Shown here: piece after piece, positions 43,527 through 64,000 of the stretch
How positions within the stretch are numbered: the first letter of the stretch is position 1
How the letters are laid out: the number at the start of each line of letters is the position of its first letter
NCBI GenBank assembly: GCA_943370825.1
Contig: CALRSR020000006.1
Location: 21,080 to 85,079, forward strand
DNA: 64,000 bases
Direction of reading: 5' to 3'
Origin: Bosea thiooxidans
GTDB taxonomy: Bacteria; Pseudomonadota; Gammaproteobacteria; Burkholderiales; Burkholderiaceae_C
Notes under the pieces: generated by a model
Seen by the model: only the letters and a program-made list of their open reading frames with translations
The model's database searches: none
Told to the model about the DNA's origin: nothing
Program-made: the position numbers and the translations under genes

Positions 43527-44384
43527 TCAGAGCCGGACCTGGGCTGCCAGACGGGCCAGGTCCGCCCGGGCCAGGTCGTCGGTGTCGGGGCAGCGCTGGA
43601 CGATGGCCCCCAGGTCGCGCATCAGGTCGGTCACCGCATGGCGCAGCGCCAGGGCCTCGGCGGAGCCGCCCAGCCAGCCCTGGGACTGGAAGACCTGGTG
43701 GCCGGTCAGCGCGACCAGCACCCGCAGCAGCAGCGTCACATCGTCGGAGCTGCGGGGGTCGGCCGTGGGGCGCAGCAGGGTTTCGTGCACCTGCTGCAGC
43801 CAGGCCGCCATGGGCGCCGGCGCCGGTGCACACAGCCGCTCTTCCAGCAGGATGGCCTGCACCGACAGCACCTCCTGCCATTCGCGCGGGGAAGGCACGC
43901 GCACCGGATGGGTCAGCCGGTGCACCGTGGTCCGCACCTGCGCATGCACCCGGGACAGACCCATCGCGGCCAGCCGGCCCGGGTCTTCGGTCAGGAAGAA
44001 CGACAGCTGGACAGGTGGGCGACCCTCCAGATGCGCGGCCCAGGTGCGGGTCACATCCGGCGGCAGGGGTTGCTGCACATCGTCGCCCTGGTCGTCCAGC
44101 AGGGCGCCCAGCCCGTTCTGGTAGAGGCGGGCCGCAGTCGCCCAGTGCGGGTCGGAGCCGGGGGCGTCGAGTCCGCTCTGCGGCAACACCGGCAGCACAT
44201 GGCGCGACCGGGTCATGCTGCTGAAGAAGCCCCGGGAGCGGGGACTCGGCGGCTGCAGCGGCTGGAGCGCACGGGACTTTCGCTGCGGGCCGGCACCCGA
44301 ACGGGGGCTGGTCGGCGGGGACGATGCGTCGCTGGCGATGGTGATGACGGGTGGCAGGGATGGAACGGAACAACGGGGAGACAC
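43527..44384 (-). CDS. Orphan hypothetical protein, Ser/Pro-rich N-terminus
   Basis: 285-aa ORF filling the flgB-flgA gap; plausible helical C-terminal half; GTG start uncertain. Confidence 0.6.
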   Translation of the reverse strand: MSPRCSVPSLPPVITIASDASSPPTSPRSGAGPQRKSRALQPLQPPSPRSRGFFSSMTRSRHVLPVLPQSGLDAPGSDPHWATAARLYQNGLGALLDDQGDDVQQPLPPDVTRTWAAHLEGRPPVQLSFFLTEDPGRLAAMGLSRVHAQVRTTVHRLTHPVRVPSPREWQEVLSVQAILLEERLCAPAPAPMAAWLQQVHETLLRPTADPRSSDDVTLLLRVLVALTGHQVFQSQGWLGGSAEALALRHAVTDLMRDLGAIVQRCPDTDDLARADLARLAAQVRL

Positions 44385-44527: not shown

Positions 44528-45235
44528 TCAGGAGGGTTGAGCACTCAGGCTGCGGCAGCGTGCCGACAGCCGTTCCCGGGTGGCGTCATCCAGATCGGCA
44601 CCCTGGATCAGCTTGAGCAGGCGCGGCAGGATGCGCGAACCGGTTCCGACCAGGATCCAGTTCAGGTAATGCCCGTTGTAGTCGTGGAACGAGAAGGTCT
44701 GCGCCAGGAGGCGCTGCAGCGCCTGCACCTGATCCAGCAGCGCCGTCAGGCCCCCCTCGGTGGCGGGCCGGTGCAAGCGCAGGAACCCCTCGGTCCGGTG
44801 CACTTGGGCCTCCATGTCCGGCAGGGTGGCCGGCATTTCCGAGCGGATCCATTCGGTCTGCAGACGGATGTGTCGCTCGTGATGAACGAAACACGCCTTT
44901 CTGCAAGGCGACAGCAGGTGATTGAGGACCTTCGAAAACCCGGCCTCGCCACCGCAGCGCTCCCGAATCTCGGCCCACACCGCCGAGGTGGGCCGATCCT
45001 GCCTGTCCAGGGCATCGAGCCATCGGATCACCTGCCGGTCCCACAGCAACGCGGTTGGATCCTCGCTCACGGGTGGATCCACCGACGGGACCACCGGGTG
45101 GGGTTCAAGCCCGCTCGCCGGGGCAGGAGCGACCGCAGTCCCGGGCTCGGGCCGGGCCGCAGGCTGGGGTGGAACTGGCGTGGCCTTGAACCCAAGACCC
45201 CGGCGGTGCTGGATGTCGCTTGATGTGCGCTTCAT
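44528..45235 (-). CDS. Orphan hypothetical protein, N-terminus MKRTSS, Pro-rich linker
   Basis: ORF fills the gap; ATG at 45235 gives the same start pattern as the LRR-like orphans. Confidence 0.6.
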   Translation of the reverse strand: MKRTSSDIQHRRGLGFKATPVPPQPAARPEPGTAVAPAPASGLEPHPVVPSVDPPVSEDPTALLWDRQVIRWLDALDRQDRPTSAVWAEIRERCGGEAGFSKVLNHLLSPCRKACFVHHERHIRLQTEWIRSEMPATLPDMEAQVHRTEGFLRLHRPATEGGLTALLDQVQALQRLLAQTFSFHDYNGHYLNWILVGTGSRILPRLLKLIQGADLDDATRERLSARCRSLSAQPS

Positions 45236-46122: not shown

Positions 46123-47112
46123 TCAGACGGGGGTACCGCTCCAGGCCTCGTAGTTCCTGCGATTGGTCAGCGCCACAGCCCGCAAGTGGTCATGGAGCGG
46201 CACCGATCCTGCCTGAAGGTGTGAAGCAATCACGCTTGAAACATCAGGAAGAAGCCGTTCTGAGCCACCCAGGTCCATACCTCGCCGGATCAACCGCTGG
46301 GCCGATGCCGCCGCCTGGAACCTGGTCCCGAAATCAGCGTTCGGCACCCTCGCCGGCATCTGTGCCGCAATCACAGCCCGGTTGATGTCCGAAACCCGAA
46401 CGGGGTTGGTCTGCAGCGCCCACAAATCGTCATGCATGCCTGCCCAGACGCGGAACCGGTCGGCCATGTCATCCGGATCACCCACGCCCTTTTCAACACA
46501 CCGCGCGTAGATCGAAGAGATCAGCGACAGCGCCTTGGCGCTGTACAGCAACTCCAACGGGCCGGCTGCATCGGGGAAAGCCGTCAGGAAGTTGTGCACC
46601 ACAGTGAGCAGACCGTCGGCCATGCGGGCCGCCTGGTGCAGATCACTGCGGTGATCGCACAGGAGGGCCGACTCGAACTCGACCTTGATGTGCTGCAATG
46701 ACAGCATCAGACCACGCACGCTGGGAGCGACAGAGTAGTACTCCGGGGTGAGGTTGCGCTGGTCATCAATGACGACCATGCCCAAGCGGTCCGCCAGCGG
46801 ATTCAGCAACCGGGCCACTGCAAGCAAGGTTGTCGGGCATTCCAGATCACCCTTGGCCATGATTTGTTGCAGGCTGTCGGATGCAACCAAGAAATCCTGT
46901 CGTTCCATGCTGTTGAGGCATCCACCCCTCACCTGCCGCTCGTAGATGGGCTTTCCGGTGTTCTTCGGACGCCGGACGACATGGCTGCGCAGGTCGTTTT
47001 CCACCCGGGCATTCCCAGGCTGCTGGGTGTTCCGGTGGGGGGTGATGGCAACGGAGCGCCTGACCTTCTGGCGGTCAGCAGGGGGGGAACGGTGAACGGT
47101 ACTGGGGCCCAT
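46123..47112 (-). CDS. Orphan hypothetical protein with atypical codon usage
   Basis: 329-aa ORF (alternative ATG 46908) between flgA and flgM; visibly more A/T in third positions than the flg genes. Confidence 0.55.
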   Translation of the reverse strand: MGPSTVHRSPPADRQKVRRSVAITPHRNTQQPGNARVENDLRSHVVRRPKNTGKPIYERQVRGGCLNSMERQDFLVASDSLQQIMAKGDLECPTTLLAVARLLNPLADRLGMVVIDDQRNLTPEYYSVAPSVRGLMLSLQHIKVEFESALLCDHRSDLHQAARMADGLLTVVHNFLTAFPDAAGPLELLYSAKALSLISSIYARCVEKGVGDPDDMADRFRVWAGMHDDLWALQTNPVRVSDINRAVIAAQMPARVPNADFGTRFQAAASAQRLIRRGMDLGGSERLLPDVSSVIASHLQAGSVPLHDHLRAVALTNRRNYEAWSGTPV

Positions 47113-47309
47113 GGGGACATTCCTTTGAAGTTTTGGTCACATCCAATGTCAAATGACATTGACAACAGCCCTTAGTAATCCAGTCTTCCCGTTTTCTCCG
47201 CGCAAAGCGGCGAGCCGACCATCGGTCCATCTGGCGGTCGATCTGGCCTGTGTTCACCCTCCTTTTCCGGGTTTTGCACCGGCAGCAGTGGCCCTACATT
47301 CGCATCCCA

Positions 47310-49525: not shown

Positions 49526-50305
49526 TCAGCTCCAGAGAAAACGGCCGGGTCCGCGTGCGGCGGGCTCTGCGGCGGAGGCATTCGGGTGGGCAGGGCTCGG
49601 TGCCACCTGGGCCACCACCGGAATGCGGGCCACCCAGGATTCGGCGCTCCAGACCGGCCATTCGGTATTCAGGTGGCGCCGGGCGCAGTCGGTCACGGTG
49701 AGGGTGGTGCGTTCGCCTGCAGCGTCCTGCTGCAGCGGGCACAGCACCGGCTGCAGGCCGGCAAAGTGCAGCAGCTTGGCGGCGGCGTAGGTGTCCAGGC
49801 CGGCCTGGGCCGGGCCGAGCACCGGCACCATGGCATGGGCGCCGGTGTCGCACAGCAGCTCGCCCAGGGCGGCAGCCGGCGCGAACAGCAGCACCACCAC
49901 GTCGGCGGCAAACGGGGCCAGCAGCCGGGAGAGCGCGGCGCGCGGGCCGCCGGCACGGGCGGTATCCAGCAGGCGTTCCAGGCCCAGGGCGGCCGGCAGG
50001 ACCAGCCATTCGGCGTCGTCCAGCGGGCGCTCCAGCTGCACCACCGAGGGGTCGATGAGGGCGCGCAGCAGGCCCAGGGGCAGGTCGCGGCTGCCGCCGG
50101 TGCGGTGCAGGGCGGGTTGTTCGGCGGCGGTGGCGTCCAGCACGGCCACGGCATGGCCGGCAGCGCTCAGGCGGGCTGCCACCTCGCACAGCCAGTCGTA
50201 CGACTGGGCCGGTCGGGCGCTGCTGGCCAGCGGCATGAGCAGGGCACTGCCGGTCAGGGCTGCGCCCTGGAGCCCTGCGGCCTGGTGGGCGCCGGGCTCA
50301 AACAC
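49526..50305 (-). CDS. FlhG/FleN-position protein with degenerate P-loop
   Basis: HQAAGL N-terminal motif, VAVLDA, located between flhF and fliA; no GKGGVGK. Confidence 0.6.
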   Translation of the reverse strand: MFEPGAHQAAGLQGAALTGSALLMPLASSARPAQSYDWLCEVAARLSAAGHAVAVLDATAAEQPALHRTGGSRDLPLGLLRALIDPSVVQLERPLDDAEWLVLPAALGLERLLDTARAGGPRAALSRLLAPFAADVVVLLFAPAAALGELLCDTGAHAMVPVLGPAQAGLDTYAAAKLLHFAGLQPVLCPLQQDAAGERTTLTVTDCARRHLNTEWPVWSAESWVARIPVVAQVAPSPAHPNASAAEPAARGPGRFLWS

Positions 50306-51830
50306 GGGCGCCTCCGAGCTGGATGCCGGCAGCGTTGTTGGCCTGGGCGAAGTAGTAACCCAGGTCGTCGGGCACCGGGTCGTGGGCGGCCTTGGTCTGC
50401 GCGCCCATGGACAGGCGCACCAGGGCGGCGGCGTCGGGGTTCTGCCAGTCTTCGGGCACGCGCTGGCCGTTGGCCACGCCGCGCAGCACCGCCTGGTGGC
50501 GGATGAGGGCATCGAGCACCGGGCCGAGCTTGGCGGCTTCGTCCACCTTGGACATGACCACACCGTGCAGGCCGCCCACCTTGAAGGAGGCCATGACCTC
50601 GTCCAGCGTGTCGCCGTGGGCACCGGCGTTGAGCACCATGACCTTCTTGATGCCGGGCTGGTCGAGCACGTCCAGCATGTCCTGGATGCGCTGGTCGCGC
50701 TGGCCCAGGCCGGCGGTGTCGATGATGACCAGGCGCTTGCCCGAGAGCAGGTTGAGCAGGTCCTTGAGCGCGGCGCGGTCGTGGGCCAGGTGGGCCACCA
50801 CGCCGAGCATGCGGCCGTAGGTGCGCAGCTGCTCGTAGCCGGAGACGCGGTAGGTGTCCAGGGTGATCAGGCCCACGCTGCCGGCGCCGTACTGCTTGAC
50901 GCACTGGGCGGCCATCTTGGCGGCGGTGGTGGTCTTGCCCACGCCGGTGGCGCCGATCAGGGCCACCACACCGCCCTCTTCCACCAGGCCGGCGCCGGGG
51001 GCTGCGACCTTGAGGTTGCGGGTCAGCACGTCCATGACCCAGCGCACCGCTTCGGCCGGGCCGGCTTCGGTGGGCACACGCTCCAGCACGGCACGGGCCA
51101 TGGAGGGCGAGTAGCCGGCGCGGATGAGCTTGTGCATCAGCTGCGACTGGATCGGGTTCTGGCGTGAGGATCCGATCCAGGCCAGGGTGTTGAAGCGCTC
51201 CTCGATCATTTCGCGCAGGGCCGAGATCTCCACCGCCATGCGGTTGTTCTCGTCCTTGGGGAAGCGGGCCGGCTCGGAATGGGCCCAGGCGGCTTCTTCG
51301 CGGGTGCGGATGGGTTGCGGGGCGGGCGCCATGGTGATGGGGCCGGCCGGGGCGTTGAAGCGCTGCACCGGGATGGCCGGGGCGGCGGGCTGGGCCACCG
51401 GGCGGGCCACCGGCTGGGCCATCGGCTGCACGGCAGCGCGCTCCACCGGGCGGGCAGCTTCCTGCACCGGGGCGGCGGTGGTGCCCATTTCCTCGCGGCG
51501 CTTGCGCAGCATGCGTTCGCGCACATAGTCCTGGAAGGACAGGGTGCTCATGGCCAGGGCTTCGGTGTCGCTCTCCACCGACTGGCTGACGGGGGCGGCG
51601 CTGCGGGCGGCCGGCTGGGCCAGGGGCTGTGCCGCCGGCTGCGCTGCAGGCTGGGGCAGGCCACGGGCCGCACCGGTGAGGCTGGCCAGGCTTTCTTCGG
51701 CGGCAGCCATCACTTCAAAACCCTCGGCGGTGTTGCGGGAGGACAGGATCACCGCGCTGTCGCCCAGGGACCGGCGGACCTTGGACATGGCTTCACGCGA
51801 GGTGGGGGCAAGGAATCGCTGGATGTTCAT
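50298..51830 (-). CDS. flhF: Flagellar SRP-like GTPase
   Basis: GATGVGKTTTAAK, DTYR, DTAG, SKVDEA, NGQRVPED. Confidence 0.96.
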   Translation of the reverse strand: MNIQRFLAPTSREAMSKVRRSLGDSAVILSSRNTAEGFEVMAAAEESLASLTGAARGLPQPAAQPAAQPLAQPAARSAAPVSQSVESDTEALAMSTLSFQDYVRERMLRKRREEMGTTAAPVQEAARPVERAAVQPMAQPVARPVAQPAAPAIPVQRFNAPAGPITMAPAPQPIRTREEAAWAHSEPARFPKDENNRMAVEISALREMIEERFNTLAWIGSSRQNPIQSQLMHKLIRAGYSPSMARAVLERVPTEAGPAEAVRWVMDVLTRNLKVAAPGAGLVEEGGVVALIGATGVGKTTTAAKMAAQCVKQYGAGSVGLITLDTYRVSGYEQLRTYGRMLGVVAHLAHDRAALKDLLNLLSGKRLVIIDTAGLGQRDQRIQDMLDVLDQPGIKKVMVLNAGAHGDTLDEVMASFKVGGLHGVVMSKVDEAAKLGPVLDALIRHQAVLRGVANGQRVPEDWQNPDAAALVRLSMGAQTKAAHDPVPDDLGYYFAQANNAAGIQLGGARV

Positions 51831-53905
51831 GCTGCAAGCTCTCCAAGAATCGGGCCGATGCGGATCAGGTGGGTTTCAGGGATTTCGCCGTGGGCGAGCA
51901 CCTGCAGGCGCGGGGCTGCGCGGCGCAGCAGGCGGGCCATGGCGGTGCGGATGGCGTCGGGCACCAGCAGGCAGGCGGGCACGCCTTTTTCTTCCTGCCG
52001 GATGGCGATGTCGGTGGCGGATTTGCTCAGCATCTCGGCCACACCGGGGTCGAGCGCGGCGCCGCCCTGGCCGGTGAGGGCCTGCATCAGCAGGCGCTCC
52101 AGGCCGGGCTCGATGGCGATCACTTCGAGTTCCTTCACCGGGCCGTAGATCTGCTGGACGATGGCCGGGGCCAGGGCCAGGCGCACGCGGCGGGCCAGTT
52201 CGGCCGGGTCGGTGACGCTGGGGGCGTGTTCGGCAATCGCCTCGATGATGGTGCGGATGTCGCGCACATGCACACCTTCTTCCAGCAGCAGCTGCAGGAC
52301 TTTCTGGAAGGTGGCGACCGGGATCATTTTGGGGACGACTTCTTCGATCAGCTTGGGGGCCAGGCGGGTCACGTGTTCGACCAGGTCCTGGGTCTCGGTC
52401 CGGCTGAGCAATCGCGCGGCCTGGACTTGCATCAAGTGTGAGAGATGGGTGGCCAGCACGGTCTCGGAATCAACGACCGTAAAACCGGCCATTTGCGCGC
52501 TCTCCTTCTGCTTCTCGTCGATCCAGTGCGCGGGCAGGCCGAAAGCGGGGTCGGTGGTGGGGGTGCCGATCAGCGGGGTGCCGATGCCACCCGGATCGAT
52601 GGCCAGGAACATGCCGGGGAACACCTCGCCCTGGCCCACCACCACGCCACGCAGGGTGATGCGGTAGGCGCTGGGGTGCAGTTCCAGGTTGTCGCGCACA
52701 TGGACCGGCGGGGGGAGGAAGCCCACGTCCTGGGCGAACTTCTTGCGCACGCCCTTGATGCGGGTGAGCAGGTCGCCCGAGCGGGTCTTGTCCACCAGGG
52801 CGATCAGGCGGTAGCCCAGCTCCAGGCCCAGCAGGTCGATGGGCTGCAGGTCGTCCCAGCTGGCTTCGCCATCGGCGGCCGGGGCGGCCGGGGCTTCTTC
52901 GGCCACCGGCTTGAGCGACTGCTGGTGGCGCCACCAGGCCAGGCCGCCGGCCAGGGCGGCAAAGCCCAGGAAAAACACATGCGGCATGCCGGGAATCACA
53001 CCCAGCAGGAACAGCACGCCGGCGGTGACACCCAGCACGCGGGTGGACAGGAACATCTGCTCCACCACCTGGGCGCCCAGGTCTTCGTCCTTGCCCACCC
53101 GCGAGACCACCATGGCGGCGGCCACCGAGATCAGCAGCGAGGGGATCTGCGCCACCAGGGCATCGCCCACGGCCAGCAGGATGTAGCTGTCGGTGGCCTG
53201 TGAGGCCGACAGACCGTGCTGCACCATGCCGATGATCAGGCCGCCGATGATGGTGATGATCAGGATCAGGATGCCGGCAATGGCGTCGCCACGCACGAAC
53301 TTGGAGGCACCGTCCATGGAGCCGAAGAATTCGGCTTCCTCGGCCACCTCAGCGCGGCGGCGCTTGGCCTCCTTCTCGTCGATCAGGCCGGCGCCCAGGT
53401 CGGCGTCGATGGCCATCTGCTTGCCGGGCATGGCGTCCAGGGTGAAGCGGGCCGACACCTCGGCGATGCGCTCCGAACCCTTGGTGACCACCACGAAGTT
53501 GATCACCACCAGGATGACGAACACCACAAAGCCGACCGCAAAGTTGCCCCCGATGAGGAAGTGGCCGAAGGCCTCGATCACCTGGCCGGCCGCGCCCGGG
53601 CCGGTGTGGCCTTCGAGCAGCACCACCCGGGTGGAGGCCACGTTGAGCGACAGGCGCAGCAGCGTGGTGAGCAGCAGGACGGTGGGAAACACCGAGAAGT
53701 CCAGCGGCCGCTTCATGTAGGCGGCCACCGTCATCACGATGAGGGCCAGCGCGATGTTGAGGGTGAAGAAGGTGTCCAGCAGCCAGGGCGGCAGGGGCAG
53801 CACCATCATGGAGAGGATGGTGATCACCAGCATGGGGGCGGCCAGGCCACCGGCCCAGCCGGCGTTGCGGCGGAACCATTGCTGCAGGGGCTCGAGAGCG
53901 TTCAT
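51827..53905 (-). CDS. flhA: Flagellar export gate protein
   Basis: RFTLDAMPGKQMAIDADL, FFGSMDGASKFVRGDAIAG. Confidence 0.98.
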   Translation of the reverse strand: MNALEPLQQWFRRNAGWAGGLAAPMLVITILSMMVLPLPPWLLDTFFTLNIALALIVMTVAAYMKRPLDFSVFPTVLLLTTLLRLSLNVASTRVVLLEGHTGPGAAGQVIEAFGHFLIGGNFAVGFVVFVILVVINFVVVTKGSERIAEVSARFTLDAMPGKQMAIDADLGAGLIDEKEAKRRRAEVAEEAEFFGSMDGASKFVRGDAIAGILILIITIIGGLIIGMVQHGLSASQATDSYILLAVGDALVAQIPSLLISVAAAMVVSRVGKDEDLGAQVVEQMFLSTRVLGVTAGVLFLLGVIPGMPHVFFLGFAALAGGLAWWRHQQSLKPVAEEAPAAPAADGEASWDDLQPIDLLGLELGYRLIALVDKTRSGDLLTRIKGVRKKFAQDVGFLPPPVHVRDNLELHPSAYRITLRGVVVGQGEVFPGMFLAIDPGGIGTPLIGTPTTDPAFGLPAHWIDEKQKESAQMAGFTVVDSETVLATHLSHLMQVQAARLLSRTETQDLVEHVTRLAPKLIEEVVPKMIPVATFQKVLQLLLEEGVHVRDIRTIIEAIAEHAPSVTDPAELARRVRLALAPAIVQQIYGPVKELEVIAIEPGLERLLMQALTGQGGAALDPGVAEMLSKSATDIAIRQEEKGVPACLLVPDAIRTAMARLLRRAAPRLQVLAHGEIPETHLIRIGPILGELAA

Positions 53906-53910
53906 GCAGC

Positions 53911-53956
53911 GATTGTGAAAATCTTGAGGGTTGTCGATCGCGGGAAAAGCAGGGGG
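53911..53956 (-). promoter_or_regulatory. Own promoter of flhA (motif shared with flgB upstream)
   Basis: -10 CACAAT 6 nt upstream of the flhA ATG; GATTGTG..CTTGAGGGT..CGATC..AGGGGG. Confidence 0.55.
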
Positions 53957-54089
53957 AAACCGGCCAGATCGGCAGTGAAAAACGTTCGACGTGATTCATG
54001 ACAAATGCATCACGCATGGCCGAGAGGCGGATCGACGGCCGGGACGGGGGCACTCAGGGGCCTGCGCTTCCTGAACCGGTCAACTGCCC

Positions 54090-55718
54090 ATGAAACGAAC
54101 TTCGCTCAACACCCCCTCCCCAAGACCTTCCCCACCCGCCACGCCCACGGGCTCACCCGCCCGCTCCAGCGGATCGCTCGATGCGTCGAACGATGTGAGC
54201 GAGAACCCGCTGGACTTCGACTCGCAGGACGAGTCGGCCATCGACGAGATCCTGCTGGACCGGCAAGCGATGTTGGAGAGCGGCGACTTGGCCGGCCTGC
54301 GGGAGAGCCTGAGTCAGCATCCGAACGTCGGCCTGGAGCTGGACCTGTCGAACGGCCCTGGAGCGCATGTCAGCCCCGAGGTGATGGCCCAGGTGTTCAC
54401 CGACCCCCACATCACCCGGTTGAAACTGACCGGGGTGCCCATGGACCCGCCCGTGCTCCAGGCCATCGCCGGCGGGATCGCCCGCAACGGCACCCGACTG
54501 CACGAGCTGACCTGTCTGAATGACACCGCACAGATGTTCAGCCCCGGGCTGGCGCAACTGCTGCCGCTGCTGCGCGGGCTCAAGGCACTCCACCTCCAGC
54601 TGGCCCAGCAGCCCGCCGACAGGGTTCCGAACACCTCTGAATGCGGCCCCTTGATGACGGCATTGCTGAACATGCCGTTGCAGGAGCTCAGCATCCAGAA
54701 CTTCGGAGCGGCCCTGCGACACATGATTCCGCACTGGGCCACGTCCTCGCTGCAGCCAGACTGGAAGCTGGTCCGGCTGGAAGGCATCAACCTCGGCCTC
54801 AATGTTCAGGACCGTGTGGCCGACTGGTGCTTCAGAGGCTTCATCGGATTCGTGCACCTCGTCGTCTGCAGAAGCTCGGCGAGCAAGCTGATGCTCGGGA
54901 ACATCGGCTCGGACGCCCAGATGCGCCGACATCCCGATCCGCCCCTGAACCTGAACCAGGCCTGCTTCGCCGAGTTGCGCCGGACGTTGCAGTCGGGTCT
55001 GCAGCAAAGATCGCAGCAGCCGGGCTCGAAGCCCTTCTACATTTCCCTGGGCATGACCGATCTGGGCGTTCTGCGCATCCTGTTGCCGGCCATTGCGTCG
55101 CCCTCGATCAATGGCCTGCGGGGCCTGGATCTGGGTTGGGAGCATCCTGGGTACGCTCCGCCCGACACCGGAGAGATGCAGGCCCACGCCCAGCAATTCC
55201 TGCAGCTCGTCGCCCAGCACGCCATCCATCTGAAGCACACCGACGAGCTGTCCATCCACCTGGACCTGCCCGGCTCGGCCGCCCACCCTGGCGCCCGGCC
55301 CAGCATCAACGCGCTGTCCCATGCGCTGAGCGGCCTGCACCTGACCTCGCTCGATTTCAGCGGCACCTGGTTCGACGACATGCCCGGAGCCTTGCAGAAC
55401 TGCATCCATGCCGCCGTGACCCGGACCGTTCACATGGAGCTGCAGCGCCAGGCCCTGGGCAGCTGCATCCGCTTCGGCGGGCCCGCCTATGCCCAGCTGG
55501 GCGAGGTGGGCAGCGAGGTGCTCGACCGGCTCGAACACCCTGACCGCCTGTTGCCCGTGCTGCCCGCGCTCGACAGCGCCCACCTGAAGGCCTTCGTGGA
55601 CCGCTACGAGTCCCGACGCCAGCAACGCGCCCGGGTGGACGAGATCGACATGCCGGGTCCGCATCCGCTCAAGGCGGTGTCAGACAGCGTGCAGAAACGT
55701 CTGAAGGGTGGCTCATGA
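54090..55718 (+). CDS. LRR-like orphan protein, paralog 1 (candidate secreted effector)
   Basis: 542 aa; MKRTS S/P/T-rich N-terminus; LxxLxL repeats (LRGLKALHL, PLQELSI, LRGLDL, LTSLDF). Confidence 0.8.
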   Translation: MKRTSLNTPSPRPSPPATPTGSPARSSGSLDASNDVSENPLDFDSQDESAIDEILLDRQAMLESGDLAGLRESLSQHPNVGLELDLSNGPGAHVSPEVMAQVFTDPHITRLKLTGVPMDPPVLQAIAGGIARNGTRLHELTCLNDTAQMFSPGLAQLLPLLRGLKALHLQLAQQPADRVPNTSECGPLMTALLNMPLQELSIQNFGAALRHMIPHWATSSLQPDWKLVRLEGINLGLNVQDRVADWCFRGFIGFVHLVVCRSSASKLMLGNIGSDAQMRRHPDPPLNLNQACFAELRRTLQSGLQQRSQQPGSKPFYISLGMTDLGVLRILLPAIASPSINGLRGLDLGWEHPGYAPPDTGEMQAHAQQFLQLVAQHAIHLKHTDELSIHLDLPGSAAHPGARPSINALSHALSGLHLTSLDFSGTWFDDMPGALQNCIHAAVTRTVHMELQRQALGSCIRFGGPAYAQLGEVGSEVLDRLEHPDRLLPVLPALDSAHLKAFVDRYESRRQQRARVDEIDMPGPHPLKAVSDSVQKRLKGGS

Positions 55719-57430
55719 AGCGGCTGTCTTCTGCCCTGTCGGCTCCGATCCTGCCCACCACGGCTGGCCAGGCGGTGGCCATCGAGCCGGCCACCGCCGA
55801 GCTGTCCGGCGCCGAACTGGACACCCTGCGGTCCGGGGCACTCGATGCCGGCCAGCCGATGCGCCTGCGGCAATGGCTGGTGGCCGACCCGCAGCGGGTG
55901 TTTCACCTGCCGCTGCACACGGATGCCGCGCCCCGCCACCTGAACACGCTGCTCAGGGCATGGCCAGACCAGGGTCCTGTGCCGCCCCTGGTGCTGATGG
56001 GGCCGGCCTGCCCGGATCTGCAAGACCATGCCCTGGCCCGGATGCTGACCCACCCGGGTCTTCGCGAACTGGGGCTTCAGGAGCTGGAACTCGACGTCGA
56101 CCGGCTGCATGCCGTGGCGCAGGCGCTGACGCCCGGGGCTGGCGGCCTGAGCCAGCTGCAATGGGCCGACGATGTGGACTGTCTGATGAACGATGGCGTG
56201 GCCAGCATCCTCAAGCGCCTGCCGTCGCTGCGCCATCTGACGCTGCAGATGACCTCGACCGATGCGGCCAACCAGTCCCGCTGTGACGCGGGTGCCGTGC
56301 AGATGGCCCGCACGCTGGCCAGCCTGCCGCTGGACTCGCTGACGCTGTGCGATCTGGGCTGCTTCATGGCCGTGCTCAGCATGGTGCTGCCCAAAGGGGG
56401 CGTTGTCCCCTGGAAGGCGCTGGAGATCCAGGAGATCGATCTGAGCATGAACGGATCCGCGTACCTCCTGCCTCTGACGGTGGTGCTGGTGCGGTGCCTG
56501 GATTCCCGGGAGTTCAGGTCCCTGCAGCTGAGCGGTTTTCACATCGGCACCGCTGCGCTCCTGGCCGGCGGCATGGACAACCTGTGCGCACCGGCATGCC
56601 TGGATCTGGTGAAAGGTCTGGCGGTGGCCATGCACAAGCGCTCGCAACCGCTGGAGCTGGCGGTCGAGTCCGACGACCTGTCCGCCCTCATCCTCCTCAT
56701 GGACGGGCTGACCGGCGACCCCGACGGCGCCACCGCCAGCGACAGCGAATTCGACGAGGTCATTGCCGGACCGGTGAACTGCGTGCGCAGCCTGTCGGTG
56801 GGCTACCGGCCCGACCTGGGGCATCTGGAGGGGCTGGAGCTGATGGGGGATGCCCTGCACTCCATCACCGTCTGGCTGGATGCATTTCCGCGCTTGGAGG
56901 CACTGGAGATCGCGCTGCAGCCCACCGCCGCGCTGCCGGTGTCGTCGGCCCTGCTGTTGTCGCAGGTGCTGGTCCACACACAGGAACAGCTGGCCAGGGC
57001 CGTGTCTGCCAGCGCCATCACCCATGTGACGCTGCGGGGCGCCCCGCTGGAACCGACGCCACCGTTCCTGCAGCCCTGCCTGGCGGACGTGGCGCGCCGC
57101 GCCCTGGACCGGCAACTGCGCATCGGGGCGCTGGATGTGGGGCTGGACTTTCTGGGCCACCAGCACAGGCTGCCGCCCGAGCTGCGGGTGAAGCTGGTGC
57201 AGGACACCGTGGACGGTTCGGGGTCGCCGCATCCGGTGGCCGTGCTGCCGGCCCTGAACAGCCAGCAGCTGGCCGGCCACGTGGCGCGCTACAACCAGCT
57301 GGCACAGTCGGTGCACCGGAACGATCCGGCCATACCGCTGCTGTCGCACCCGTTGACCGGGCTGTCGGCGCAGGTCGGTCAACGGCTGGCCGCCAGCGCT
57401 GCTCAGACCGGGGGCGACGGCTTGCGGTAG
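55715..57430 (+). CDS. LRR-like orphan protein, paralog 2
   Basis: 571 aa; ATGA-coupled to paralog 1; LRELGL, LRHLTL, PLDSLTL, LEALEI; 3' end overlaps the flhB 3' end. Confidence 0.8.
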   Translation: MKRLSSALSAPILPTTAGQAVAIEPATAELSGAELDTLRSGALDAGQPMRLRQWLVADPQRVFHLPLHTDAAPRHLNTLLRAWPDQGPVPPLVLMGPACPDLQDHALARMLTHPGLRELGLQELELDVDRLHAVAQALTPGAGGLSQLQWADDVDCLMNDGVASILKRLPSLRHLTLQMTSTDAANQSRCDAGAVQMARTLASLPLDSLTLCDLGCFMAVLSMVLPKGGVVPWKALEIQEIDLSMNGSAYLLPLTVVLVRCLDSREFRSLQLSGFHIGTAALLAGGMDNLCAPACLDLVKGLAVAMHKRSQPLELAVESDDLSALILLMDGLTGDPDGATASDSEFDEVIAGPVNCVRSLSVGYRPDLGHLEGLELMGDALHSITVWLDAFPRLEALEIALQPTAALPVSSALLLSQVLVHTQEQLARAVSASAITHVTLRGAPLEPTPPFLQPCLADVARRALDRQLRIGALDVGLDFLGHQHRLPPELRVKLVQDTVDGSGSPHPVAVLPALNSQQLAGHVARYNQLAQSVHRNDPAIPLLSHPLTGLSAQVGQRLAASAAQTGGDGLR

Positions 57431-58551
57431 TGAGGGTCCAGCTCCTGCGGGACCTGCGGCACCGGCTCGGCGGGCATCACGCCCTCGCCGCGCAGCGCGG
57501 CCTTGAGCTGGTACACATAGGCCAGCACCTGGGCCACGGCGGTGTAGAGGGCCGAGGGAATCTCCTGGTCGATCTCGGCGTGGGCATACAGGGCGCGGGC
57601 CAGCATGGGCGACTGCAGCACCGGCACCTTGGCGTCCTTGGCCACGTCGCGGATCTTCAGGGCCAGCATGTCCGATCCCTTGGCCACCACACGGGGCGCG
57701 GCCATGGTGGCCTCGTCGTAGCGCAGGGCCACGGCGTAGTGGGTGGGGTTCATGACCACCAGATCGGCCTTGGGCACGGCCTTGATGCTCATGCGCTGGG
57801 CGATCTCGCGGGCGCGGGCGCGGCGGCGGCCCTTCATGTGCGGGTCGCCTTCGCTTTCCTTGTGCTCGCGCTTGACCTCGTCATGCGACATGCGCAGCTG
57901 GTGTTTGTGCAGCAGCTTCTGGACGGGGAAGTCGATGGCGGCCACCACGGCCACGGTCACCATGAGGCCGGCCACGCCGAACATCATCCACCGCCCCAGC
58001 TGACCGATGCCGGACTCCAGCGGCTGCATGACCAGCGAACTGAAATCACCCAGGTGCGATGACAGGAACTGCCAGCCCACGGCGCCCACGATGAGGGTGA
58101 TGACGCTGAGCTTGGCAGTCTCCACCAGCTGCTGCTTCGAGAACAAGCGGCCGAAACCCGAGAGCGGGTTGATGCGCGAGAGGTCGGGCGTGATGGGCTT
58201 GGTGGACAGCGTCCAGCTGCCCGAGGCAAAGGCCACAGCCAGCACGAACACCAGCAGCAGCAACCCCAGCGGCAGGTACAGCACCAGCCCCTGACCGAAG
58301 GCGTCGAAGGCCCGCTGCAGGCCCACCTCGGGCGTGACCACGGCGGCGCGGTCGAACCGCAGCTGGCCGCGCAGGCCGTCCTTGAGCAGGCCGAAGGCCA
58401 GCGGCAGCGCCAGCATGAGCAGGGCCGATCCGGCCCCCAGCACCGCCAGGTTGAGCAGGTCCTTGGAACGGGCCACCTGGCCATCGTCGCGCGCCTTTTT
58501 CAGGCGCTGCGGCGTGGCGGGCAGGGTTTTGTCTTGGGCGGAATCGGACAT
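57403..58551 (-). CDS. flhB: Flagellar export / substrate-specificity switch protein
   Basis: ATPQRLKKARDDGQVARSKD, KESEGDP, VVMNPTHYAVAL (NPTH autocleavage), LARALY. Confidence 0.98.
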   Translation of the reverse strand: MSDSAQDKTLPATPQRLKKARDDGQVARSKDLLNLAVLGAGSALLMLALPLAFGLLKDGLRGQLRFDRAAVVTPEVGLQRAFDAFGQGLVLYLPLGLLLLVFVLAVAFASGSWTLSTKPITPDLSRINPLSGFGRLFSKQQLVETAKLSVITLIVGAVGWQFLSSHLGDFSSLVMQPLESGIGQLGRWMMFGVAGLMVTVAVVAAIDFPVQKLLHKHQLRMSHDEVKREHKESEGDPHMKGRRRARAREIAQRMSIKAVPKADLVVMNPTHYAVALRYDEATMAAPRVVAKGSDMLALKIRDVAKDAKVPVLQSPMLARALYAHAEIDQEIPSALYTAVAQVLAYVYQLKAALRGEGVMPAEPVPQVPQELDPHYRKPSPPV

Positions 58552-58675
58552 GGACGTGAAACGGAGGCTTCACGCCATTGTTTCTGCGCCACGGACCGAC
58601 GGTCTGTGGAACAGAGGGGCAGTCACCGGTCACTTCGCGGACTGACCGGGCATGGCGCTCAGGCGTCGGACGGGG

Positions 58676-58706
58676 GGTCAGGCACCGGCGTGACCGGTGC
58701 CTGACC
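58676..58706. repeat. Perfect 13-bp inverted repeat
   Basis: GGTCAGGCACCGG-cgtga-CCGGTGCCTGACC. Confidence 0.9.
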
Positions 58707-59078
58707 ATGCAGGTTGAATGTCCGGACATGGGCCGCAAGGTCCTGCAACAGGCCAGCGGTCAAGGACAGGAGCGTTTCGGCCGGACAGATTCCAGCCATT
58801 GCTGGATGTTCCGATGGATGTCGTCGGGGTTGGCAGGCCCTGGATCACCCCGGTTCAAGGAGTGGGAGTGGGTACTGGCGACGACGCTGGAGGTGTAGGT
58901 GGATCTCGGCATCACAGCGGGCTCCAGATGGTTGTTGAATGGACATGTCCATCACCTTGGCCAGCACGACCCGGGCCGCCAGGACCACCGGTCAGCTTTT
59001 CGGATTAAACGATATCCATCTGATCACCAACCATCTTGTTCCACTGACCCGGCTGCTCGCTGAGCACCGCTCGATCCC

Positions 59079-61934
59079 ATGAAACGCTCCCAATCCTCCA
59101 CCTGGACGCCGCCTGTCACGGCCCATCCTGGCCAACCCCTGGCGACCCCCGGCAATACAGCGGTGGCGGGCCCGGCCAGCACCGCTCTCGCCCTGCAGTC
59201 AAGGCTGAGCGCGGCCCAGTCCCAGGCGCCGAATCTGCAGGTGCAGACCACCCCCCAGGAGCGATGCATCACCACTGCACTGGCCCAAGCACTGTCCCTG
59301 GCCGATCTGATCCCCAGGCACCAGCGCCGCCAGGACAAGATGGACAAGTGCGCACAACCCGACTCCGGCGTCACATCGGCCGATGTGGGCAGCGACAGCG
59401 ACAGCGACGCCGACCTCAACGCCCCCGCACAGGCCGCTGCTGCGCGCGCCGCGCTGGACAGCGCACTCCCCGGCATACCCCGGCTGCACGGCATGGCAAC
59501 GAACGACACGGCCGCGCATCATTGCCAGGCTTATTGCCTGGCAACGATGCAAGCCCACACATGTCATACCGCCGGCCACCACCTGCCTGAAACCTGCGGC
59601 GCCCTGCACAGCCCCAATTCGCAGAACATTCAGCTCGCCCGACTGGAAGTGCTGAGCCTTCTCAGCCTCACCGCTCAACCCGATCCACAGCTGCTGAAAC
59701 TGCTTACCCGGCTGCTGCAGATGGCCAGTGACATCCCCATGACCCTGGCCGCCACAGCCCTGCTGCCGGGCAGCCTTGGAAAACACATGGCCCTGGCCCT
59801 GCAGGCAGCCTATCTGCAAGGCAGCGACCTGCCACTGCCCGCCTTCGGGCTGCAGGGCACCCTGCCCCCCTACATCAAGACCGCCTACCTGCCGCCGCTG
59901 CAGCCCGGTGCCATCGCCAGTCAGGACATGTTCCGCCTCTCGATCCGTGGCTCCGGTGTGTGGGAGGCGGCTGTGGAGAAGGCCCACGATCTGAGCGAGA
60001 AGCTCTACCAGTGCCTGGAGCTGCGTCGTACGCAACGCACCAACCCCACCCGCCAGTTGCGGCAAAAGGTGCAGCAGCAACAGATCGCCCAGCACCGTCA
60101 GACCGCACACAAGGCGCTGCAGCAACTCGATCAGCTCGATCAGTGGCAGACACCCATCGGTGCTCCGATCGCCAGCACGCCCGCCACCGACCCACGCCTG
60201 GCCCAGATCAACGCGGTGCTGCTGGTGGATCAGCACCAGCAGAGCCTGACCCAGCCCGAGGCGGTCTTCAAGGCGCTGGCACAACACCCGCCGCAGACCG
60301 AGGCCCTGCAATCCGCGCGCGAGTCCGTGTTGCTGGACTGCCTGCGCCAGGACAACCCGCCGGCGCACCTGGCTCTGCTGGACTGCCTGCTGCGCATCAA
60401 CACCGACAGCTGGTTCAGTGTGAAGCAGACTTCCATCACCCAGGCTTTGGCCATACCGGAACAAGACATCCAGGGCCAAAGCAACGCCCTGAAGAAAGCC
60501 ATCGACACGCTGGTGCGGGCTACGAAGCACAACCCATCGCCCATCGCTCCCATTGCGCTGTGCTGCCCTGAACGCATCAGCCGCTCGTTGGCCGACCATG
60601 CGCCCAACCTGGGCCTGCTGTTCTCTCACCCAGGCATCCGCGGCTTGCGCCTGGATGGTGTGCTGCTGAACCCGACCCCACTTGTGCAGACACCAGCGGA
60701 CTCACTGGTGCCGATGGCTCGATCAGCATCAGCCCTGGAGCGGCTGGAACTGGCCAACCTGGCGCCGGAGTCCTACACATGCGAAGCCGTCGTGAACCTC
60801 ATCAAGGAACTGCCCGGGTTGCGCGAGCTGGCCCTGGGTGCGGAGGACCTGCAAGGCAATTCGGCCTCCCAGTGCCTGGCTTTCGCCCGCGCGGTGCTTG
60901 GCAAGAACCTGAAGAGGCTGGAGATCACGGGATCGACCAGTGACCGGCCGGCATCCTGGGACCTGCTGCGGGCCTTCGAATGGGCGCTGAACGACCCGGG
61001 ATCAGAGCCAGGCGCCATGCAGCAGCCGACTCTGGGTACTGTGGCGACAACCGTCCGAATCACAACCACCCTACATTCCAATTGGCTGTTTGGCTACCTG
61101 GCGTCTCTGGTGAGGGCAGATTGCTCCGCGCTCGAACTGAATGCAGCGGAGGAAGCCCTCGTAACGTTCGTGTCTGAAGGACACCCCGCCGTGACCGATT
61201 GGCTGACAGCCATGGAACAGCGAACCCGCCCTCTTCACCTGACGCTCCGTGAAGGCTTGCCGGGCACCGGATCCTGGCTTGCCTGCCTGCCGTCGAACCG
61301 GCCGACCGGTGAAAAGTACACCCTCGGTTGTCTTGAAGCGCTGTCATTCGAATACACAGCGGATGACGTGGGTGCAGACCTTCAGGACATGTGCCACTCC
61401 CTCGGCTCGTTGGCGCTGGTGGTCGAGCGCCTCCACCGCCTGCAGACATTGGAAGTCGTCATGAACATTGGCGGGCACGTGACCGAGCCGCTGCATCGCT
61501 GTGATCCCAGCAATCTGGCTCACGAATTGATACAGACCGGCAACAAGACCCATGCGGTCATCCCCCCCAACAATGCCTGGTCCATCCAGTTCAAGCGGTC
61601 TCTGGAATGGGCGCGTTTCGGTCGCGGGCCTCTGCAGACGGCGTCCTGGGCGGCCTTGCTGAAGCAGGCCAGTGGGCGCAGCTGGCCTACCGAGATCGTG
61701 CAGCGCATCCTCGACGCCTTGAACAAGACCGGCCACGCGCATCCCGAGGCCCCTGCGCTCAACCGCGCGCAACTGCTGACCTCGGTGGAACACTACGAAG
61801 CCATGCAGGCGCGCCAGATCGCTCAATCCATGCCAGTGCCGGCCTGGGTGGCCAGGCACCCCCGCCACGATCTGGCAGAACAGGTCAAGCAGCGGCGAGG
61901 AATCGCACGTGGCATTCCGGATCTCATCATCTGA
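59079..61934 (+). CDS. LRR-like orphan protein, paralog 3, with long N-terminal extension
   Basis: 951 aa; MKRSQSS start; HPGIRGLRL, LERLEL, LRELAL, LKRLEI, LQTLEV. Confidence 0.8.
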   Translation: MKRSQSSTWTPPVTAHPGQPLATPGNTAVAGPASTALALQSRLSAAQSQAPNLQVQTTPQERCITTALAQALSLADLIPRHQRRQDKMDKCAQPDSGVTSADVGSDSDSDADLNAPAQAAAARAALDSALPGIPRLHGMATNDTAAHHCQAYCLATMQAHTCHTAGHHLPETCGALHSPNSQNIQLARLEVLSLLSLTAQPDPQLLKLLTRLLQMASDIPMTLAATALLPGSLGKHMALALQAAYLQGSDLPLPAFGLQGTLPPYIKTAYLPPLQPGAIASQDMFRLSIRGSGVWEAAVEKAHDLSEKLYQCLELRRTQRTNPTRQLRQKVQQQQIAQHRQTAHKALQQLDQLDQWQTPIGAPIASTPATDPRLAQINAVLLVDQHQQSLTQPEAVFKALAQHPPQTEALQSARESVLLDCLRQDNPPAHLALLDCLLRINTDSWFSVKQTSITQALAIPEQDIQGQSNALKKAIDTLVRATKHNPSPIAPIALCCPERISRSLADHAPNLGLLFSHPGIRGLRLDGVLLNPTPLVQTPADSLVPMARSASALERLELANLAPESYTCEAVVNLIKELPGLRELALGAEDLQGNSASQCLAFARAVLGKNLKRLEITGSTSDRPASWDLLRAFEWALNDPGSEPGAMQQPTLGTVATTVRITTTLHSNWLFGYLASLVRADCSALELNAAEEALVTFVSEGHPAVTDWLTAMEQRTRPLHLTLREGLPGTGSWLACLPSNRPTGEKYTLGCLEALSFEYTADDVGADLQDMCHSLGSLALVVERLHRLQTLEVVMNIGGHVTEPLHRCDPSNLAHELIQTGNKTHAVIPPNNAWSIQFKRSLEWARFGRGPLQTASWAALLKQASGRSWPTEIVQRILDALNKTGHAHPEAPALNRAQLLTSVEHYEAMQARQIAQSMPVPAWVARHPRHDLAEQVKQRRGIARGIPDLII

Positions 61935-61945
61935 CCCATCGCACC

Positions 61946-64000
61946 ATGATCCGCCACAGTCCCACCACCCCATTGCACCGATCCACCTTCAGAAGCACAG
62001 ACAACGAGCCGTCCCACCACACCCCGTCATACGCCTCAGACCTGCTGAGGGAGTCCCGCCAAGGCTCCGGCTGCACCGTTGCCCGCCAGCTTGACACCCG
62101 GTGCGTCACACCGGTCAATTCATCCGCACCGCCCCCGCTGACGCTGGAGCGCTTTCCATCCTGGGCTCCATCGATCGAGGCCTGGAATGCGCACCTGGAG
62201 AAATGGGCGCACGCATGCCGATTGATGAAGAATGACAAGCTTCCGCTGGTGCACCAAGCGCTGGCCAGTCCGCTGACCGACCCTGAGCTGTTGCAGGCCG
62301 CTCGGGAAGAGTTGATGATCACGCGCACCAGGAAATCCCACAGCATTGCTTACAACGATGGCATGCTTGCCTTGCTTCGACTGCGACCCGATGTGCCCTT
62401 CGTCATGTCACGCAGCAGGCTGGATGATGCGCTGCCTGGGAAGATCGGCGGGTATCACGGCTGGTCGCGCGCTGTGCGTTGTCTCGGCTTGTTCGTTGTC
62501 AAGGAGAAACATCCGATAGCGGATCTGCGTCTTAACGACAAAGCAACGCCGCCTTCTTTTCTTGATTCCACGGCCTTCTTCCCGCCGCAGGCCTACACGC
62601 TGTTTCAGTCGCCCGCAGTGGGTCACATTCACCTGCAGCACGTTCAGATCTCGAATACGGCCCTGCAGTACTTCAAAAGCGACAAGAAACCCGCAACGAT
62701 CCCATCGCTGACCCTGGAGGGACTGGGTGTGGACTCTGCTTTCTTCAAGCAGGAAAGTGATCTGTTTCCTCAATTGCGGACACTGCACCTCAACCTGCGG
62801 CCTGAGTCCAAAGAAAGCGTCTCCGCCAAGATATTCGAAGCGACCGCCAACAGCTTGCTGGACCGGACTCTGGACCGGTTGCAGATCTTTGTCACACCCA
62901 ACCAGGATCCCACCACAGTGCTGTCGCTGTTGAAGAGCATCGGCGCGCAACGTCGCCAGCGGTCCGAGGCACCGCACTGGGGGCAATTCAGCCTGGTGCT
63001 GCCCGAGCACGAACGCAGGTTGCCGGCTGCGGTCGGCCAGGTCATCCGAGACATGGTGGAACTGGGGTGCCCGAAGGCCATGCTGGAGCTGGGGGCGAAC
63101 AACGGCCAGCCAGGCGGTGGCACCCCTTCCCCGGATGGTCCGGCTTCATCCGGGATGCTGAAGCTTCTTTTTGAGCCCGGATCCAGTCACCTCCATCTGC
63201 GCAATCTCATGGTCAACGACAAGGTACTGGATGCCATCGGCATGTTGCCAGCCCGCACACCCTTGCGATCGGTGACGCTCGAACAGATGGACATCGCCTC
63301 ACCCGGCTTGCCGGAGAGCCTGGCGGCGTTCACCGGCTTGCAGGCGCTTGACCTGAACATCGTGCAGAAGGGCCCGGTCACCGCTGCACAGTTTGACGAG
63401 TTGGCCAGAGCCCTGCTGACCATGCCATTGCAGGAGCTGCAGTTGAAGGTGATGCCTGGGGACGATCTTCTCCCGGTGTGGTGTCTTCTGCACTCCCTGC
63501 AGCTGGAACGGCAGAAGATGAAAGAGGCACCGCCCTGGAAGTCATTGAGCTTGCTGCTGCCGACACTTGCGCTGGCGATGCAGGCGCGCTACCACGCCGC
63601 TGTAGCGATGATGATCGGCCTGGGCTGTCCTCGGCTGGTGCTGGAAGTGCAATCTCTGGACAAGGACTTCCGGGACAGCGTCCAGGCAGACCAGCCTTTG
63701 AGTCCTTCCAGGATCGCACTGCGGGAGCGAACGCAACCGCTGGATCTTCAGATCCGGCTGGGCCATCACGCCCTGGCGCACCATGTGATGGCGGCGTGGG
63801 TGAAACCACTGACCTGGCTGAGCGACAACGATCCGGACACCCCCGAACTGCCCCATATCCCCTGTTTGACCGGCTTTTCGATGCAGCTGTCGGGATCTGG
63901 GGTGGATGTCGACGAGCTGTTGCTGCAGCGGGCGGCCCTGATGAGCCAGGCGAGCCATGTCTGCGCCTCGGTGGTGCATCAGAGTCCGAACCTCAAGACG
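61946..64000 (+). CDS. LRR-like orphan protein, paralog 4 (3' truncated by window edge; absent from the ORF track)
   Basis: Manual translation is open from ATG 61946 (MIRHSPTTP...) to the window end; LRTLHL, LQALDL, PLQELQL, ERTQPLDL. Confidence 0.8.
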   Translation, partial: MIRHSPTTPLHRSTFRSTDNEPSHHTPSYASDLLRESRQGSGCTVARQLDTRCVTPVNSSAPPPLTLERFPSWAPSIEAWNAHLEKWAHACRLMKNDKLPLVHQALASPLTDPELLQAAREELMITRTRKSHSIAYNDGMLALLRLRPDVPFVMSRSRLDDALPGKIGGYHGWSRAVRCLGLFVVKEKHPIADLRLNDKATPPSFLDSTAFFPPQAYTLFQSPAVGHIHLQHVQISNTALQYFKSDKKPATIPSLTLEGLGVDSAFFKQESDLFPQLRTLHLNLRPESKESVSAKIFEATANSLLDRTLDRLQIFVTPNQDPTTVLSLLKSIGAQRRQRSEAPHWGQFSLVLPEHERRLPAAVGQVIRDMVELGCPKAMLELGANNGQPGGGTPSPDGPASSGMLKLLFEPGSSHLHLRNLMVNDKVLDAIGMLPARTPLRSVTLEQMDIASPGLPESLAAFTGLQALDLNIVQKGPVTAAQFDELARALLTMPLQELQLKVMPGDDLLPVWCLLHSLQLERQKMKEAPPWKSLSLLLPTLALAMQARYHAAVAMMIGLGCPRLVLEVQSLDKDFRDSVQADQPLSPSRIALRERTQPLDLQIRLGHHALAHHVMAAWVKPLTWLSDNDPDTPELPHIPCLTGFSMQLSGSGVDVDELLLQRAALMSQASHVCASVVHQSPNLKT

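Follow-up and report, generated by a model that had tools for sequence, protein, structure and literature searches.

The 64,000-nt window analysed here (contig CALRSR020000006.1, positions 21,080-85,079; G000:C6:21080-85079 in our numbering, G000 being the 3.45-Mb, 99.99% complete genome to which it belongs) contains, towards its right-hand end, a cassette of four genes, hereafter A-D, which encode predicted leucine-rich repeat (LRR) proteins and lie among the genes of the flagellar export gate. The gene order reads fliA (-), flhF (-), flhA (-), A (+), B (+), flhB (-), C (+), D (+), and continues past D with cheZ, cheY, motB, motA, flhC and flhD, every one of them on the minus strand. Both LRR pairs are thus antisense to their neighbours, A/B filling the flhB-flhA gap and C/D the gap from cheZ to flhB. 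In window coordinates, flhF occupies 50298-51830 (-) and flhA, the sole FHIPEP export-gate gene of the genome, 51827-53905 (-), while flhB, encoding the export-gate switch protein (57403-58551, -), is parted from flhA by the A/B pair. The four open reading frames (ORFs) had been listed in a first-pass annotation as two same-strand pairs flanking flhB; all of them are present on the plus strand, and the gene order bears out the paired arrangement.

Gene A (54090-55718, +; 542 aa, short form, A subclade) starts with MKRTS, and its Ser/Thr/Pro-rich leader is followed by the LRR horseshoe and then by the C-terminal helical module. Its stop overlaps the start of gene B (ATGA), another short form, of the B subclade (55715-57430, +; 571 aa). 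Gene C (59079-61934, +; 951 aa) is a long form: about 110 disordered residues come first, next a helical extension of about 370 aa in which a motif is duplicated, and after it the LRR and its C-terminal helical module. Gene D, which belongs to the long-form lineage (757 aa, +), starts with MIRHS at 61946 and ends 219 nt past the window. Both pairs run tail-to-tail into a flagellar gene: B and flhB overlap by 28 nt (57403-57430), and the stop of D overlaps that of cheZ by about 4 nt, just past the window end. These overlaps leave no space for terminators. Convergent transcription must enter the partner gene, which makes mutual antisense interference possible.

A-D are real genes. Their GC content by codon position is gene-like in the plus frames, with GC3 (0.75-0.87, lowest in D at 0.75) exceeding GC1 (0.64-0.75), whereas long antisense shadow ORFs have the mirror-image pattern, which identifies the plus frames as the coding strand. 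It could be argued that the ORFs arose by chance in DNA of high GC content, or that they merely shadow genes of the minus strand, given that long ORFs exist on both strands, e.g. 54153-55664 (-) and 55604-57382 (-), and that no Shine-Dalgarno sequence precedes A or C. However, the minus-strand ORFs are broken in relatives, the plus-strand homologues hold their frame across 25-83% identity with a ratio of nonsynonymous to synonymous divergence (omega) below 1, and AlphaFold2 (AF2) gives a confident LRR fold, so that an artefact is refuted for practical purposes.

All-vs-all alignment and a family hidden Markov model (HMM) unite A-D as one family. A and B align across 490 aa with 24% identity and 61 bits (E 9e-9 for a database of 1e8), and C is recruited by the short-form profile (E 1.8e-12, Z=1e6). 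D, which reached only a marginal 24 bits with that profile, obtains 128 bits (E 2e-37), in two domains, from a broader family HMM built without it; its residues 15-351 match HMM positions 24-253 and its residues 396-724 match positions 113-455, so that D carries the N-terminal part of the LRR twice. The paralogy of the four proteins, proposed in the first-pass annotation from six colinear blocks read by eye, therefore stands, with one correction: owing to the duplication, block (i) of D stems from the first LRR copy and its blocks (ii)-(vi) from the second. The further proposal of a locally amplified, strongly diverged family is likewise borne out; a family HMM search of the whole genome returned no fifth member. 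The family tree has two deep lineages, namely the short forms, dividing into the A and B subclades, and the long forms, including C and D, which are extended at the N-terminus by a helical region containing a duplicated motif.

The AF2 model of B (pLDDT 77, pTM 0.76) comprises a disordered segment (residues 1-27), twelve strand-helix repeats (60-441) and a helix bundle (450-564), the first seven repeats being spaced by 26-34 residues and the later ones irregularly, by 39-44. Searched with Foldseek, the model matches the LRR domains of NLRP, TIR1, SKP2, CARMIL and ribonuclease inhibitor (E 4e-6 to 4e-3; probability 0.98-1.0 for NLRP, ribonuclease inhibitor, TIR1 and SKP2), as well as MAX2 and axonemal LRR proteins. 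Against PDB sequences, the family profile retrieves ribonuclease inhibitor (E 4e-4) and NLRP5, and among 1.84 billion representatives it matches LRR_6 and NACHT-LRR proteins in many short stretches; the protein atlas also indicates RanGAP and LRR_6 clusters. Modelling and profile matches thus agree with the ribonuclease-inhibitor-type LRR solenoid that had been suggested from the sequence, and support an RNI/NLR-type horseshoe of about 12 repeats as the fold of the family. At the strand positions (LxxLxL), the core leucines are fixed and alternate with very variable exposed residues. All members except D share, at the C-terminus, a conserved helical module of about 120 residues, which has no universally conserved Cys, that of the LQPC motif being absent from the long forms; D, as noted, also has MIRHS in place of the MKRxS start. 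The AF2 model of C (pLDDT 62) places the same LRR after the helical extension; together with Foldseek it reveals no recognisable enzyme domain, the sole matches being weak ones to NLR LRRs. The N-terminal extension had no Foldseek match, and an ESM Atlas search with it was uninformative (scores up to 0.70).

Searches of Pfam, NCBIfam and PADLOC returned no meaningful family match for A-D or their N- and C-terminal segments. No LRR family appeared in hmmscan of A-D even at E 0.1, the gathering score of Pfam LRR_6 being unmet; no F-box or F-box-like Pfam match was obtained with the whole proteins or their terminal segments at E up to 10, nor was there a match to NEL; and the PADLOC defence-system models gave 0 matches for A-D. 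Public records label the members hypothetical proteins and list one of them for a Hydrogenophaga sp. R2, and our literature search found no paper on this LRR family or on genes between flhB and flhA. A-D belong to a family of proteins that is restricted to one clade, had not been described before and is synthesised in the cytoplasm.

When 5.8 billion proteins were searched by words, only 4 relatives came up, and an exhaustive profile search of the 1.84 billion representatives recovered about 23 full-length cluster representatives. Within Hydrogenophaga, the genus of G000, the family occurs in 5 of the 131 species genomes searched and in 0 of the 126 others, the carriers being exactly the five genomes whose FlhB is 94-100% identical to that of G000 (next-best FlhB, 73%); all five are small (2.9-3.45 Mb). 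One of them is Hydrogenophaga sp. IBVHS2 (G014), which was assembled from lake-surface metagenomes (PMC5571423) and has also been detected in a xenic cyanobacterial culture (PMC13532358), weakly indicating a freshwater ecology of the clade. At least one member lies antisense between flhB and flhA at all 11 loci with visible flanks, i.e. in G000, G014, G075 (whose locus is probably the same contig as L009), G127 and G135 and in the metagenome contigs L008, L031, L032, L040, L041 and L042. The linkage to flhA/flhB predicted from this window alone hence holds in relatives, where homologues are not scattered. An additional member occupies the cheZ-flhB gap in G000, G014 and L031, whereas L008 has all four copies, long form included, between flhB and flhA; copy number ranges from 1 to 4. 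In the four other Hydrogenophaga species examined, flhB and flhA are only about 20 bp apart, which implies that the cassette split an ancestral flhBA operon. In L031 a family gene is divided into two ORFs of 144 aa and 491 aa (L031:1206-3173; frameshift or contig error), and L008 retains a remnant of an A-type C-terminus (L008:1050-1220), both of which suggest to us that genes of the cassette are still being born and lost. The 144-aa ORF had been considered as a chaperone and was rejected, being the broken N-terminus of that family gene.

The cassette differs from its surroundings in its divergence. Between strains, identity is 82-100% for the flanking flagellar proteins (92-100% for FlhA, FlhB, FlhF and CheY) but 25-83% for those of the cassette. 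Between G000 and four relatives, flhA, flhB and flhF have nonsynonymous divergence (dN) of 0.01-0.05 and synonymous divergence (dS) of 0.12-0.49, compared with dN 0.67-0.75 and dS 0.75-0.93 for the gene in the B position between flhB and flhA. Between G000 and L008, the values for A, B and C are dN 0.21-0.35, dS 0.42-0.66 and omega 0.5-0.75, against dN 0.00-0.02, dS 0.07-0.28 and omega 0.06-0.10 in the flanking genes, and even with respect to the closest relative, L032, A and B have dN 0.10-0.13, dS 0.22-0.23 and omega 0.46-0.57. Across pairs, omega within the family genes is 0.33-0.58 (up to 0.75 against L008), versus 0.06-0.10 in the flanks. Since the dN of the cassette amounts to several times the dS of neighbouring genes, and its dS is also far larger, the cassette genes coalesce much deeper than their flanks; they are either old alleles, lineage-sorted paralogues or genes exchanged by recombination. 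The dS of flhB (0.21-0.49) always exceeds that of flhA (0.12-0.22) in comparisons of G000 with G127, G014, G135 and L041, which could mean that flhB hitchhikes with old alleles of the cassette or that recombination has breakpoints within it. We also note that flhB sits between two variable gaps.

A second shared property is the N-terminal leader. The sequence MKR, followed by T, S, L, M, P or V, is found at or near the called start in 24 of the 30 family sequences compared, MKRTS being the most frequent form, and this start, usually encoded by ATGAAACGCAC, lies behind a C-rich leader without a Shine-Dalgarno sequence. In the proteins, the MKR(T/L/S)S start introduces 30-110 disordered, Ser/Thr/Pro-rich residues. 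Over the first 40 residues, the Ser/Thr/Pro content is in the top 1-13% of the proteome (fraction 0.28-0.53 in MKR-starting members, most of which exceed the proteome's 90th percentile), and the first 12 residues of MKR-starting members include 0-1 Asp/Glu. A Ser/Thr/Pro-rich, acid-poor N-terminus is typical of type III secretion signals, though not diagnostic of them, and the composition of the leader is compatible with a signal for a type III secretion system (T3SS) to the same, non-diagnostic, extent. Pattern searches in the five clade genomes led us to reject MKRTS as a genome-wide export tag: apart from a single additional orphan in G000, whatever matched was either a member of the family or a chance or antisense occurrence (e.g. 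inside a UreG-like gene), so the tag is essentially family-specific. The orphan, a 235-aa ORF upstream of flgB that starts with MKRTSS (44531-45235, -), matches only positions 1-62 of the LRR-family HMM (E 0.5) and has no homologue in four clade genomes or G009; beside it, likewise upstream of flgB, lies an orphan of 285 aa (43527-44384, -).

As for the route by which such proteins might leave the cell, a Kyte-Doolittle scan of A-D detected neither a hydrophobic N-region of Sec type nor a segment of transmembrane grade, and a twin-arginine motif is likewise absent, in keeping with the earlier claim that they lack Sec/Tat signals and transmembrane helices. The first-pass annotation had considered export by the flagellar T3SS or by another T3SS; the latter is excluded, since flhA is the single FHIPEP gene of this 99.99%-complete genome, which consequently has no injectisome. 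Neither TssC nor VirB4, markers of the type VI and type IV secretion systems, has a match in the genome. Two secretins are encoded, one within the window (22323-22829, G000:C6:43402-43908; 903-aa open frame) and the other on C25, and no further outer-membrane secretin was found; the two presumably belong to a type II secretion system and a type IV pilus. With a single T3SS and no TssC or VirB4, the flagellar gate is the obvious candidate if the signal-less A-D proteins exit in one step.

The regions between the divergent genes were inspected for signs of control. The divergent flhA/A region (53906-54089) contains the C-rich leader before the ATG of A. Its flhA-proximal ~85 bp and a palindrome of TGAC-N6-GTCA type, TGACAAATGCATCA (53999-54012), are conserved in six genomes, whereas the family-proximal part of the region is variable; the palindrome is a candidate operator for some regulator, although look-alikes of it are no commoner in the window than chance would give, and we infer only that the conserved part is compatible with a shared divergent control region. 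The divergent flhB/C intergenic region (58552-59078) is unusually long at 528 bp and harbours a perfect 13-bp inverted repeat, GGTCAGGCACCGG-cgtga-CCGGTGCCTGACC (58676-58706), with no T-run after it. Two candidates were discarded: the palindrome TGACnAATnCnTCA, considered as an operator common to flagellar-region orphans, had 9 matches against 3.8 +/- 2.3 expected, which is not significant, and GGCAC-N5-GGCC, which precedes A-type genes, was dismissed by eye as a possible sigma-54 site, its spacing being off by one. A weak copy of the palindrome, TGACCAAAACTTCA (47126-47139), is located just upstream of the start of an orphan ORF of 329 aa and low GC3 (0.75) between flgA and the flgM/flgN region (46123-47112, -).

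Considering these observations together, we favour, with a probability of about 0.35, the reading in which A-D are exported through the flagellar T3SS gate as variable binding proteins. Late flagellar substrates combine a disordered N-terminal export signal with a C-terminal helical docking region. By analogy, the disordered leader of A-D would serve as the export signal and their C-terminal helical region would dock on a chaperone or on FlhA, whereupon the proteins would exit through the flagellar gate, no other route of one-step export having been found in the genome. Outside the cell, the target of the LRRs may be one that changes quickly, for instance on grazing protists, algal partners or phages, and frequency-dependent selection would keep many old alleles in the population. 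Expression might be coupled to flagellar transcription by the divergent promoter region in common with flhA and by the tail-to-tail overlaps with flhB and cheZ. The case for export is circumstantial: it fits the composition of the leader, the architecture of the proteins, the lack of another one-step route among those searched for and the arms-race-like divergence. More tentative still is the complete picture, that of an effector or decoy repertoire which is set inside flhBA of a free-living freshwater bacterium, equipped with an MKRTS/Ser-Pro leader and a C-terminal docking module, and kept as ancient alleles.

Several findings weigh against export as we envisage it. No chaperone gene is evident adjoining A-D, D has lost both the C-terminal module and the MKRxS start, and all four genes run against the direction of the flagellar operon. 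No sigma-28-like site (TAAA-N15-GCCGATAA) precedes A or C, and a sigma-70 consensus scan of 53500-64000 gave no promoter-like site. At the exposed positions of the concave LRR face, omega was 0.13, 1.28 and 0.18 in three close pairs, so that a concentration of omega above 1 on this face is inconsistent across them. Moreover, the flagellar T3SS discharges proteins into the medium without a translocon, which leaves the notion of an injected host effector unsupported. Finally, the synteny may trace to one ancestral insertion and local duplication, and because all known members come from one clade, their constant position cannot count as separate evidence that they are functionally linked to it.

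The last point leads directly to the view that the cassette is a historical accident, in which a fast-evolving orphan LRR family reached the locus by one insertion, tandem duplication and local rearrangement, has a function unrelated to the flagellum, and is not exported, or leaves by a type I system, vesicles or lysis. We regard this as somewhat less likely than export, although it draws on much of the same evidence: restriction to one tight clade reduces the synteny to what is essentially a single event, only 1.1 kb separates the two occupied gaps, the genes run antisense to flagellar genes with no flagellar-class promoter found, and GC3 below that of core genes (0.89-0.92, as against 0.75-0.87 in A-D) as well as omega of 0.3-0.6 fit weak constraint. 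An accident would, however, leave unexplained why the ORFs of every genome remain intact at 540-950 aa, with the N-terminal start, C-terminal module and core leucines conserved, why at least one copy is kept in all five clade genomes, and why the arrangement persists although the insertion split the flhBA operon. The far deeper coalescence of the cassette than of its flanks is hard to obtain unless selection maintains alleles, and a further MKRTSS-starting orphan occupies another flagellar gap.

Two other proposals keep the proteins inside the cell. In one, they are cytoplasmic LRR adaptors or regulators that bind parts of the gate or motor (FlhA-C, FlhB-C, FliI/J or chaperones) and tune assembly or substrate choice, a role consistent with their strict adjacency to flhA/flhB and the common divergent control region, with the absence of a signal peptide from A-D and the nature of LRR domains as protein-binding scaffolds, and with convergent overlaps that suggest reciprocal transcriptional control with flhB and cheZ. 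The near-invariance of the presumed partners speaks against it: these are 92-100% identical, versus 25-83% for LRR proteins present in 1-4 copies, while a housekeeping regulator would co-evolve slowly, and other flagellated Hydrogenophaga (106 with an FlhB match) do without a family member. We therefore consider this role improbable. Slightly less credible again is an intracellular immune or self-recognition module composed of variable NLR-like LRR sensors of phage or foreign proteins, whose location would be incidental. It accounts for the NLR LRR domains as closest structural matches and for old alleles in a conserved frame, copy-number turnover and pseudogene remnants, all typical of defence islands, and balancing selection on such sensors would explain the old alleles; yet neither the members nor their neighbours contain an effector domain, be it NTPase, nuclease, TIR or another, and PADLOC gave no match, both of which speak against it, and it assigns no role to the conserved, disordered Ser/Thr/Pro-rich leader, which has none in known bacterial sensors. 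The old alleles and the position of the genes, taken together, point to strong balancing selection on some interaction, and A-D look like binding proteins, putatively exported, that are engaged in an evolutionary arms race.

The closest known relatives in fold are the ribonuclease-inhibitor-like LRR domains (Pfam LRR_6 type), which share with A-D the strand/helix horseshoe and the fixed leucines of LxxLxL and provide the best fold and profile matches. They differ in that A-D fall below the LRR_6 threshold and have irregular later repeats, that the present family is bacterial and confined to one clade, and that its horseshoe is joined to a family-specific leader and a C-terminal helical module. 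In overall design, A-D are reminiscent of LRR injectisome effectors, which include the IpaH/SspH/SlrP proteins (LRR+NEL), Xanthomonas XopL (LRR+XL-box), Ralstonia GALA (F-box+LRR) and Yersinia YopM. Both have a disordered Ser/Pro-rich leader followed by the LRR, the helical C-terminus resembles that of NEL and XL-box effectors, and both form multi-copy, quickly diversifying repertoires. In contrast to those effectors, A-D are encoded in a genome without an injectisome and have no NEL or F-box match; their repeats are of the 28-29-residue ribonuclease-inhibitor type rather than the 20-24-residue bacterial, CC or GALA type, and whereas NEL effectors carry a catalytic Cys, the ~120-residue C-terminal module has no Cys that is universally conserved.

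With respect to the proposed route, the relevant precedents are non-flagellar cargoes of the flagellar T3SS, namely the Cia, FlaC and Fed proteins of Campylobacter and YplA of Yersinia enterocolitica. A-D would resemble them in using the flagellar gate instead of an injectisome and in having disordered N-terminal signals; none of those cargoes, however, is an LRR protein, hypervariable and multi-copy, or encoded inside the flhBA operon, and for A-D export is a proposal. To our knowledge, flagellar-gate export of non-flagellar proteins is known from few pathogens, and in no case is the cargo a diversifying repeat-protein family. If export is true, the cassette would offer a natural case of it in a bacterium from the environment, confined to a small stretch of genes, with the MKRTS leader as a candidate linear signal and the C-terminal module as a candidate docking domain.

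In its population genetics, the locus recalls hypervariable cassettes such as O-antigen and capsule loci, the central domain of flagellin and defence islands, in which near-identical flanks likewise enclose deeper-coalescing alleles and genes are gained, lost and left as remnants. It differs from them in that it consists of a single family of soluble LRR proteins rather than glycosyltransferases, surface structures or known defence genes. Even without export, we found no described counterpart for cassette alleles that are several times older than near-identical genes 100 bp away, or for an insertion that splits the otherwise invariant flhB-flhA junction. The LRR fold, LRR effectors and the flagellar export of foreign cargo were all known already, whereas an apparently balanced-polymorphic LRR cassette in flhBA had not been described.

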